Of a stretch of DNA of 64,000 nt, positions 92-57,369 are shown one piece after another. The notes beneath the pieces are model-generated. The model did no database searches. It was not told where the DNA came from and saw only the letters and a program-made list of their open reading frames with translations. Every line of letters begins with the position of its first letter. The stretch's first letter is position 1. The position numbers and the translations under genes were made by a program. Source of the stretch: Daejeonella sp. (GTDB lineage: Bacteria; Bacteroidota; Bacteroidia; Sphingobacteriales; Sphingobacteriaceae). The stretch covers positions 1,324-65,323 of the forward strand of contig JBIIRT010000002.1 in NCBI GenBank assembly GCA_044341405.1, read 5' to 3'.

Positions 92-118
92 ATTTAACCT
101 GAGTTAGGTTAAATTTTT
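92..118 (+). terminator. Probable intrinsic terminator of the DUF1080 gene
   Basis: 9-bp perfect stem ATTTAACCT/AGGTTAAAT followed by a T run; AT-rich stem. Confidence 0.5.
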
Positions 119-127
119 CAGGACTAA

Positions 128-473
128 TTAGATTGACAAATTTTCTTTATTTAGGAAAGCAAGTTCTGTGATTCTTCGGTCACACAAGTCCCGTGTTCTG
201 CTGTAGTTTTTTGCAGTAGTTTTGTCTAAATTATTAAATTCCGTATTGCAAAAAAGCTACAGCTGCCACCAGGGTTTATTTAAAATGGCAGTTAGTCCTT
301 TTGCCGGGCTGTAGGTCCCAATGAAAAACAGAACCAGGTAAAATAAACCTTGCCGTAGGAGATATCTTCCGGCTATCCGTAATTTGAACCAGAACGCGAT
401 TTCTTGCCGGAAATACTCCGTAGGAAAGGACTGAAACAGCCTATAACACACAGGTATTGGTTTTCAAAATCAA
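128..473. ncRNA. Unassigned structured non-coding element, copy 1 (homolog at 56510-56839, inverted)
   Basis: Reverse complement shares a 29/31-nt block (397-427), a 20-nt identical block (251-270) and a long similar terminal block with 56510-56839; several stems; strand not resolved. Confidence 0.6.
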
Positions 474-622
474 AAATAAAGGCTCCAGAGCCTTGTCTGA
501 CAATTATGATCGTGTTTTTTACCTTTCCTTGTATCGAATTCAGGCTAAGTTAAGGAATTGCAATACAAAAGAACCTCCTGACCCTAAATAATGAAATAGG
601 GATTTAGAAACGATTGAGTCAT

Positions 623-652: not shown

Positions 653-724
653 TGTGCCCAGAGGGATTCGAACCCCCATCAGCAGAACCGGAATCTGCAA
701 TTCTATCCATTGAACTATGGGCAC
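653..724 (-). tRNA. tRNA-Arg (anticodon CCG)
   Basis: Minus strand GTGCCCA...TGGGCAC acceptor stem, anticodon arm GCAGA-TTCCGGT-TCTGC, GGTTCGAATCC T-arm; CCA not encoded. Confidence 0.95.
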
Positions 725-55338: not shown

Positions 55339-56436
55339 ATGGCATTGCTTCATCAGTTGGCATTATCGTGTCTGCCGGGAATCGGACCGGTACTTGCAAG
55401 AAATCTTCTAAGCTATTGCGGTGATGCAGAGCATGTGTTTAAAGCAAAACGTAAACATCTTGCACAAATCCCTGGGATAGGTCCTAAAACGCTCGAGCAT
55501 TTAACTAATAATTCTGCATTGAAACGGGCAGAACATGAACTCAAATTTATAGATAAGTTTAAGATAAATGCTTTATTTATTACCGATGAGGAATATCCGA
55601 AACGCCTTAGAAATTGTGCAGATGCGCCAGTAACAATTTATTTTAAAGGAAATGCAAATCTAAATGCAGCAAAAGTTATCAGTATTGTTGGAACCAGAAA
55701 TGCTACTGATTATGGAAAAGAGATTTGCAGAACCTTAATTGACGACTTGAAAGTCCATCAACCTTTAATTATTAGTGGGTTGGCCTATGGCATTGATGCT
55801 GCGGCTCATAAAGAGGCTCTTAAGAACGAAATGTTGAATATTGCGGTGCTTGCTCACGGGCTCGATCGTATTTATCCTGCACAACACAGGGGAATGGCTG
55901 AGAAGATTATGGAGTGTGGCGGACTTATTACCGAATTTATGTCGGAAACAATTCCCGACAGAGAGAATTTCCCAAAACGAAACCGGATTATTGCAGGCTT
56001 GGCAGATTTAACCATAGTGGTGGAAGCTAATATCAAAGGTGGGGCATTAATTACTGCTGATCTTGCCAATTCCTATGATAGGGATGTTTTTGCTTATCCT
56101 GGTAGGATTAATGATGAGTTTAGCAAAGGATGTAATTTTCTGATTAAAACGAACAAAGCAAATTTAATAACTGGAGTAGCTGATCTAGAATATATCATGG
56201 GTTGGAATACTGAAAAGGTATCATCTGTAAAAACTCAATTGAGTTTGCCTATTAATTTAACAGGTGATGAGCAGATTCTTGCAGATATACTTTATGCTAA
56301 TGGCTGTATAGGGGTGGATAAACTTGCTTTTTTAACAGGTTTTAAGCAAAGCAAGCTCGTTATGACCATTTTAGGTATGGAAATGAAGGGATGTATTATT
56401 TCATTACCTGGCAAGGTGTATAAAATGACCCATTAA
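55339..56436 (+). CDS. dprA: DNA-processing protein DprA
   Basis: SIVGTR, ISGLAYGID, FPKRNRIIAG, VVEA..KGGALITA, winged-helix C-terminus. Confidence 0.96.
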   Translation: MALLHQLALSCLPGIGPVLARNLLSYCGDAEHVFKAKRKHLAQIPGIGPKTLEHLTNNSALKRAEHELKFIDKFKINALFITDEEYPKRLRNCADAPVTIYFKGNANLNAAKVISIVGTRNATDYGKEICRTLIDDLKVHQPLIISGLAYGIDAAAHKEALKNEMLNIAVLAHGLDRIYPAQHRGMAEKIMECGGLITEFMSETIPDRENFPKRNRIIAGLADLTIVVEANIKGGALITADLANSYDRDVFAYPGRINDEFSKGCNFLIKTNKANLITGVADLEYIMGWNTEKVSSVKTQLSLPINLTGDEQILADILYANGCIGVDKLAFLTGFKQSKLVMTILGMEMKGCIISLPGKVYKMTH

Positions 56437-56509
56437 ACTGCTTTTGACATAAGCAAAGCTAAAATAAGACGGTAATAATTAATGAGATTGGGCTCTGGTT
56501 AACAATAAT

Positions 56510-56839
56510 TTGTTTTTTGAAAGCAATAACTGTGTGGTTTAGGTCAGTTCATCTCTTTCCTCCGGAGTATTTCCGGCAAGTAATCGTTGTCTATTTCCCT
56601 TTGGTCGGTGTTGTCACCGTACCAAGAACCATCTATCAAATGGTCGGTGATAACACCAACCATAGGGAAGGAACAGTTGCCATTTATAATAGACCCGGGT
56701 GGCAGCTGTAGCTTTTTGCGAGGCAGATTTTTATGTTAAAAAGGAATTTAATGGCAAAAACTACGACAGAATACGGGACTAATGGGACCGAAGAACAACA
56801 GAACCTGCTTTATAAAACAACAGAAAATTTTCAATCTAA
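56510..56839. ncRNA. Unassigned structured non-coding element, copy 2 (homolog of 128-473, inverted)
   Basis: Same conserved blocks as copy 1; 75-nt paired module at 56595-56669. Confidence 0.6.
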
Positions 56840-56871
56840 AACAGCGCAACGAGATTTTATATCGACCCAGC

Positions 56872-57369
56872 TTAATGTTCATTTTTAGGAAAATCATATA
56901 AAATTAATTCACCTGTCCCTTGACTCAGCATTTGCCAGCTTTCAAATGGAAAGGATATCATAGCCATTCCACAGGTTGGAACATTATGAATATGTGATCC
57001 ACACAATTTATTTACCAGATCAGTTATCGAAGGATTATGGCCAAATAATGCAACAAAATCAGTCTTATCGTCTATTCTGTTAATACAATCAAGTAAATTA
57101 ATAGTCAGGGCATCATAAACTTCCATATCCTGGATAATTTCTGATTGGGGAATTTTAAATTCATCTGCAAAATATCGGGCAGTTGAGATCGCGCGTAAGG
57201 CCGGACTACTAAATAGTTTTTGAGGGATTAAATTCTTTTTTTTTAATCTCTTTGCCATTTCCTTAGCATTTTTTTCACCCCGCTCATTCAAAACTCTTTT
57301 AAAGTCCGGTTTTTTAAAATCGGTTTCTTCTGCTTTGGCATGACGAACTATCAGTAATACTTTAGGCAT
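56872..57369 (-). CDS. SixA-like histidine phosphatase
   Basis: LLIVRHAKA, DFKR.L..RG, SSPALRA..TA, GHNP. Confidence 0.9.
   Translation of the reverse strand: MPKVLLIVRHAKAEETDFKKPDFKRVLNERGEKNAKEMAKRLKKKNLIPQKLFSSPALRAISTARYFADEFKIPQSEIIQDMEVYDALTINLLDCINRIDDKTDFVALFGHNPSITDLVNKLCGSHIHNVPTCGMAMISFPFESWQMLSQGTGELILYDFPKNEH

Follow-up and report, generated by a model that had tools for sequence, protein, structure and literature searches.

A decayed, probably IS982-derived MITE between the convergent dprA and sixA genes of a lake-water Daejeonella

The dprA–sixA locus and its element

The window analyzed here is a stretch of 64,000 nucleotides (C191:1324-65323) from the genome of a lake-water Daejeonella, for which we searched an assembly of 3.05 Mb in 226 contigs. 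In this window, dprA and a gene for a SixA-like histidine phosphatase (sixA) converge on an element that lies downstream of both, as had been read from the letters alone in a first-pass annotation (Table 1). That annotation placed the element at 56510-56839 and described it as a homolog of 128-473 in the opposite orientation. The homology was borne out: the reverse complement of 56480-56870 aligned to 100-500 with a mean column identity of 80%, and the two window copies were recovered by nhmmer with E-values of 1e-85 and 1e-115. However, the homology ran ~75 bp past 56510 and ~33 bp past 56839, reaching 56436 and 56872, where degenerate inverted repeats were found. The boxes that had been described as ends conserved to the last bases are therefore internal.

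Table 1 Features of the two element copies in the window and of the neighboring genes.
Feature	Position in window	Strand	Description
dprA	55339-56436	+	PF02481, 253 bits; stop codon TAA at 56434-56436 abuts or overlaps the element end
Copy 2	56436-56872	-	437 bp, decayed; bounded by alignment to 20 full copies and copies of five other species, and by junctions compared with the empty site of L033
dprA-side terminal inverted repeat, copy 2	56436-56453	+	Degenerate, AACTGCTTTTGACATAAG versus consensus ACCTGAGTTCGATATAAG
Most conserved and most abundant module	56454-56596	-	Contains hairpin CCGGAAATACTCCGG and the TA..TGTG box; ~80-100 copies per genome
Nested REPIN-like palindrome	56597-56667	none	71 nt, separate family
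Hairpin AGTTGCCA / TGGCAGCT	56675-56707	-	Present in most family members
Bulged hairpin GTAG-C-TTTTTGC / GCAAAAACTAC	56708-56764	-	Kept across subfamilies, with compensatory changes
sixA-side terminal inverted repeat, copy 2	56856-56872	-	Degenerate, AGCTGGGTCGATATAAA on the minus strand
SixA-like histidine phosphatase gene	56872-57369	-	165 aa; stop codon at 56872-56874 overlaps the other element end
Copy 1	~97-545	+	Better preserved ends, TTAACCTGAGTTAGG... at 94-113 and ...TATCGAATTCAGGCTAA at 529-548
tRNA gene	653-724	-	~110 bp from the right end of copy 1

The interior of the element is modular: besides two hairpins, it has a cassette that varies and, toward the 3' end, a module of ~110 nt that is highly conserved. 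The cassette is made of one to three TTCCAGC...GCTGGAA sub-repeats or of a TATCTTCCGGCTATT... variant. In copy 2, the nested 71-nt palindrome takes the place of ~150 bp of the standard interior, and the middle of this copy may have been replaced by this second, smaller repeat after the insertion. Both stems named in the first-pass annotation were present: GTAGCTTTTTGC (56708-56719) pairs with GCAAAAACTAC (56754-56764) and is kept across 30 members, and AGTTGCCA (56675-56682) pairs with TGGCAGCT (56700-56707).

Empty and filled sites in congeners

The presence or absence of the element between dprA and sixA, a comparison suggested in the first-pass annotation, could be followed in three congeners. 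In L033, whose dprA is 83% identical to that of the window, the site is empty (...aaaatgacTTAAtgctcattttt...) and both stop codons lie in one TTAA. The junction reads gacTTAAtgctcattttt / gacTTAAtgctc without the element and thus represents a precise empty site. The site is filled in L032 (dprA 90% identical), L031 (98% identical), and the window. L032 carries a full-length copy in the same orientation as the window, flanked by a 5-bp duplication of TAATA (gacT-TAATA-[ACCTGAGG...CTCAGGT]-TAATA-ccc), and within the copy of L031 the small palindrome occurs as two units in tandem.

The insertions of the window and of L032 agree in site and orientation, and their flanks read CATTA/.../TAATG and TAATA/.../TAATA, respectively. 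The window flanks have only TA/TTAA in common and no clean 5-7-bp duplication. The window junction has either drifted or arisen from a separate insertion in the same hot spot. We propose that the element inserted in the TTAA at which the stop codons of the convergent dprA and sixA overlapped; since the target would have been duplicated on insertion, each gene could have kept a stop codon.

The C-terminus of DprA reads ...KMTH* in the window and L031 and ...KMT* in L032 and L033 (window, 56428-56436; L033:4088-4096; L032:4088-4100). In the window, the ancestral stop position is now CAT, and the stop codon in use ends on the terminal A of the element (56436). The insertion gave dprA a back-up stop codon and let it extend by one residue.

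A large and old repeat family

The two window copies belong to a far larger family than the pair of diverged copies reported in the first-pass annotation. In an iterated search of the assembly, nhmmer gave 134-138 matches (134 in the count set against that claim), which merged to 116 loci with a total length of 31.5 kb, or ~1% of the genome; a BLAST search with the element gave 58 matches. About 20-30 of the loci are full copies of ~430-520 bp, and the remaining ones are 3'-biased fragments or short deletion derivatives of 170-290 bp with both ends. Pairwise identities among full copies averaged 71% (range 58-91%), indicating that the family is old in this genome. For 24 of the 116 loci, a contig end is found within 300 bp. 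No conserved open reading frame was found in the element, the longest stop-to-stop frames being 35-103 aa, in a frame that differs from copy to copy. Among 37 genera sampled within the family Sphingobacteriaceae, the body of the element was found in one, Daejeonella itself, and its presence or absence varied at orthologous sites between species.

Terminal repeats and target duplications

In an alignment of 20 full copies with 80-bp flanks, homology ended at 5' TTAAC[C/G]TGAGTTCGATATAA... and at ...TTATATCGAACTCAGGTTAA 3'. With copies from five other species included, the terminal inverted repeats were ~17-20 bp long, with the consensus ACCTGAGTTCGATATAA and the outer bases AC...GT, which we took as the termini. 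The target duplications were AT-rich and typically 7 bp, of the form TAANTTA. Perfect 7-bp duplications flank one copy on C59 of the same genome (TAAATTA) and two copies of other species, G023_C104a (TAATTTA) and G045_C106 (TAAATTA). Five more copies from other species had duplications with six of seven bases matching, and a 6-bp duplication (TATTTA) was found on C114 of the genome under study. With targets of this type, the junctions are nearly always TTA/AC and GT/TAA, which accounts for the apparent TTAA on both sides.

Candidate parent insertion sequences

The 16-mer of the terminal repeat, with at most one mismatch, was carried by 27 of the 55 Daejeonella genomes, with 1-48 copies each, against 0-1 for a reversed-pattern control. 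In the genome G003, the inverted repeat ACGTGAGTTCGATATAAG was found at ten contig ends, always within ~160 bp of the end, with two kinds of inner sequence, as expected of the two ends of one repeat. A collapsed 1010-bp contig with the same inverted repeat (G003:C1) encodes a protein of 307 aa. A complete internal IS copy of ~1.05 kb was found in a second genome (G054:C78); it encodes 303 aa, has the ends ACGTGAGTTCGGGATAAG / CTTAACCCGAACTCACGT (AC...GT), and is flanked on both sides by the 6-bp duplication TATTTA. Both proteins scored 242-244 bits against NF033520 (IS982 family transposase), for which the cut-off is 130, and 228 bits against PF13612.

The ends of the short element resemble those of these ISs. 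The "CG" variant of its repeat is identical to the G003 repeat, and one end resembles the left end of the G054 IS for ~20 bases past the inverted repeat. The dprA-side repeat of copy 2, though degenerate, resembles the left inverted repeat of the parent IS, on the side of the transposase gene start. Apart from the ends, the element shows no visible derivation from the IS.

The first-pass annotation had placed any protein partner outside the window, and a candidate was indeed found there, namely the IS982-family transposase of congeners. It was detectable in nine of the 55 genomes, with a modest association with the repeat (seven of the 27 repeat-bearing genomes and two of the 28 others). It was found neither in the 226-contig assembly of the genome under study (tblastn with both transposases, best E = 0.59), from which an unassembled IS copy may be missing, nor in the most MITE-rich congeners. 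We infer mobilization from the identical inverted repeats, since the transposase is missing from this assembly and from the congeners richest in the element: an IS982-family DDE transposase would bind the repeats and move the element in trans.

No pair of inverted repeats encloses a gene in the genome under study. The sole pairs separated by over 600 bp (C22:4288-5534 and C39:1176-2235) were considered as autonomous copies and rejected, as they are MITEs with a nested third non-coding repeat and no long open reading frame. A 2.4-kb repeat pair in G007 was likewise rejected, being two MITEs that flank an ordinary gene.

Taken at the level of sequence, the element shows every hallmark of a MITE: inverted repeats, target duplications, a small size without a transposase gene, many dispersed copies, an empty site, and repeats in common with an autonomous IS, whose family is identified as IS982. 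We therefore read 56436-56872 as one copy, old and in part decayed, of an IS982-derived MITE of ~450 bp that is specific to the genus, with a probability of about 0.9. Counting against this reading are the missing transposase, its modest association with the repeat across the genus, the unclean duplication around copy 2, and the lack of visible IS sequence in the interior. Copy 2 itself is most likely an immobile fossil that is transcribed only within the 3' ends of its neighbors, given the lack of a cognate transposase in the assembly, the average identity of 71% among copies, and its degenerate inverted repeats.

Genomic context of the insertions

Surroundings were classified with a crude gene map based on open reading frames, which allowed 79 loci of the MITE to be assigned. 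Of these, 37 (47%) lie between convergent genes, a 3.6-fold enrichment over the 13% of all intergenic regions. Tandem genes surround 32 of the 79 loci (73% of all intergenic regions) and divergent genes ten (14%), and the two distributions differed strongly (chi-square, p = 5e-19). The orientation of copies in tandem contexts showed no strand bias (17 vs 17). At eight of 88 recognizable ends genome-wide, the flanking TAA is the exact stop codon of the inward-reading neighbor. Given the preference for TAANTTA, overlapping convergent stop codons are recurrent landing sites.

The strong convergent enrichment invites the reading that the MITE has been exapted, with its hairpins serving as bidirectional terminators or RNA 3'-end stabilizers at convergent genes and with copies such as that at dprA–sixA kept by selection. 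The 4-bp overlap of dprA and sixA before the insertion left no room for a terminator, and across the three lineages that retain the insertion, dprA identities range from 98% down to 90%. If true, an unusually long MITE (~450 bp) would deliver a terminator or RNA-stabilizing cassette to convergent pairs with overlapping stop codons. However, the enrichment does not by itself show function, because selection against harmful insertions, together with a target that contains TAA and TTA, would produce the same pattern. The equal orientations in tandem contexts also argue against exaptation, as does the interior of the locus copy, which differs among close relatives, its middle having been swapped for one or two units of another repeat. 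On balance, and with the structural and transcript evidence given below, we regard exaptation as unlikely.

Secondary structure and transcription

Copy 2 folded better than shuffled sequences on both strands (z = -2.6 and -4.1). In an alignment of 30 diverse copies, 92% of the cells of the bulged hairpin were paired; the corresponding values were 78% after shuffling of the columns and 50-63% after sliding of the partners. Compensatory changes were seen at one pair as CG 13, GC 7, and AU 2 and at another as GC 21 and UA 6, counts that overstate the number of independent events because the copies are related paralogs. The bulged hairpin was clearly maintained while the subfamilies diverged. Folding on both strands and the covarying hairpin speak for exaptation, and the latter, a sign of some constraint on the interior not expected of simple junk, counts against the main reading. 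The hairpins may instead be features of the master copies of the element rather than signs of an RNA gene. A consensus fold of the whole element (RNAalifold, 556-column alignment) had almost no consensus pairs, so that the local hairpin analysis alone was informative.

A scan of the element found no terminator-like site, which further weakens exaptation; the promoter matches, in a scan limited to the sigma-70 consensus, were weak and sigma-70-like. The proposal that either end could be a promoter does not hold, as those ends are not the real ones, and the TA..TGTG box matches TAnnTTTG poorly, with nothing in its support from the same scan. In lake metatranscriptome contigs, which were assembled without strand information, the only locus-specific pieces spanned the two borders of the element, extending into its ends from dprA (56340-56492) and from sixA (56814-57102), so that transcripts of both genes reach it, as exaptation would have it. 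Beyond the repeat modules, many short metatranscriptome pieces pass into unrelated sequence, indicating that they come from other copies. The RNA contigs at the locus are best taken as read-through and give no evidence of a small RNA.

In the first-pass annotation, the family was taken to be either an independently transcribed small RNA or a non-autonomous mobile element. The second half of this proposal stands, on the strength of the inverted repeats, target duplications, empty site, more than 100 copies, and the IS982 match. The first half, in which the copies would be paralogous small RNA genes with their own promoter, is very improbable. It could draw on the conserved structural elements with covariation and on repeat modules whose summed depth in the lake metatranscriptome contigs exceeds that of the flanking genes. 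However, this depth is a sum over many copies and organisms, the contigs extend into unrelated sequence, and no discrete transcript was seen in them. The inverted repeats, target duplications, empty site, and copy number mark a transposon, the proposed promoter boxes are internal and match poorly, and orientation bias is absent. Neither copy matched Rfam at gathering or permissive thresholds; the sole match in the window at the gathering score was the tRNA, and permissive thresholds added chance hairpin matches to miRNA and small RNA models, far below their cut-offs.

A MITE of a superfamily that duplicates TA or TTAA (IS630/Tc1-mariner-like or piggyBac/IS1380-like) would fit the TTAA beside nearly all copies and the TA/TTAA shared by the window flanks, but is hardly credible, because well-preserved copies have 6-7-bp duplications of the TAANTTA form that explain the TTA/AC and GT/TAA junctions, the outermost T or A is more variable than the inner bases, an IS982-family IS has the identical inverted repeat, and no DDE_3 gene was found in the genome. 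An IS630/Tc1-like MITE with a TA duplication was rejected on the same duplications and repeat and on the lack of PF13358 in the genome.

Other repeat families in the genome

The nested 71-nt unit consists of two inverted GGTCGGTG-NNNN-CACCGACC hairpins with a spacer and forms a family of its own with 56 loci in the genome. Its hairpins read GGTCGGTG-TTAT/ATAA-CACCGACC, and it occurs as whole, half, and tandem units, alone or nested in the MITE. At the dprA–sixA locus, one unit is present in the window and two in tandem in the closest relative (L031:1683-1850). REPINs are reportedly REP doublets mobilized by RAYT transposases, a description attributed to Bertels and Rainey. The nested unit resembles them in its two inverted short hairpins with a spacer, and it is found single, halved, or in tandem. 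Unlike in REPIN/RAYT systems, the three Y1-transposase genes of this genome are flanked by other palindromes, and no GGTCGGTG...CACCGACC unit was found within 500 bp of the three PF01797 matches. The association with RAYT that defines REPINs is thus lacking for the nested unit.

Two of the PF01797 matches are above the Pfam cut-off (C88:4326-4682 and C216:9500-9760) and one is below it (C87:5141-5374). The C88 and C216 genes are flanked by their own short GC-rich palindromes, e.g. GGGCTTCAGCCC and CGAACATGTCGAAC, and are possibly RAYT/REP systems unrelated to the MITE.

A second MITE family has ~8 loci in the genome, among them C70:4040-4369, C16:32125-32354, C196:3485-3648, and C50:4655-4837. 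It has the same IS982-type repeat as the main MITE (TTAAC[A/G]TGA[A/G][C/T]TCGA[C/T]ATAA) and an unrelated interior, suggesting, as far as the repeats can tell, that the same transposase may have mobilized at least two non-autonomous families. Yet another repeat, the third, is non-coding and ~418 bp long, with its own inverted repeats of ~19 bp (CCGCTCATAGCCGCGGAGG / CCTCCGCGGCCATGAGCGG) and ~18 loci. Its copies are 87-98% identical, making it younger than the main MITE, and it is nested in two main-MITE copies (C39:1566-1983 and C22:4506-4920).

Relation to known elements and significance

Members of the IS982 family are ~1 kb long and have 5'-AC ends and direct repeats of variable length, which are 7 bp in the Bacteroides IS1187 (PMC7335449). 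The Daejeonella element resembles IS1187 of B. fragilis and its family in the 5'-AC ends, the repeats (~17-22 bp in the family), and the variable direct repeats, with 7 bp as in IS1187 (PMC7335449). The candidate parents in G003 and G054 agree with the family in their length of ~1 kb and in their transposases of 303-307 aa that match NF033520. In contrast, the window element lacks a transposase gene and does not reach half that length, and is a derivative rather than an autonomous member.

A precedent for such a derivative is MITECca01, a MITE of ~240 bp from the IS982-family ISCca4 in the Cardinium endosymbiont of Oedothorax gibbosus (PMC9769881). Compared by its published description (PMC9769881), it is, like the Daejeonella element, a non-autonomous, many-copy element of Bacteroidota with no transposase gene and with IS982-like repeats. 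MITECca01 coexists with intact parental copies, whereas the Daejeonella element is ~450 bp long and has no parental IS in the assembly. Unlike MITECca01, the Daejeonella element is built of modules on the inside, with hairpin cassettes and sub-repeats in tandem, and its similarity to the IS is limited to at most ~40 bp at one end.

The Correia/NEMIS, RUP, BOX, and ERIC elements (PMC10969869) are likewise short, structured, intergenic, and high in copy number; they are co-transcribed with their neighbors, show nesting, and cluster at the 3' ends of genes. They differ from the Daejeonella MITE, which is known from its sequence, in parent families, target duplications, and sequence.

The family described here has a new sequence, is longer and modular, is confined to one genus, and mostly occurs without its transposase; its kind is already known. 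As an IS982-type mobile element with a known MITE precedent, it is not a new RNA gene, and the finding opens no new mechanism. One unannotated repeat family, which readers or pipelines could mistake for novel non-coding RNA genes, explains ~1% of the genome and many of its contig breaks. The family adds a second, larger IS982-derived MITE to those of Bacteroidota, with a clear preference for TAANTTA targets, and in most species of the genus, its copies have outlasted their transposase.
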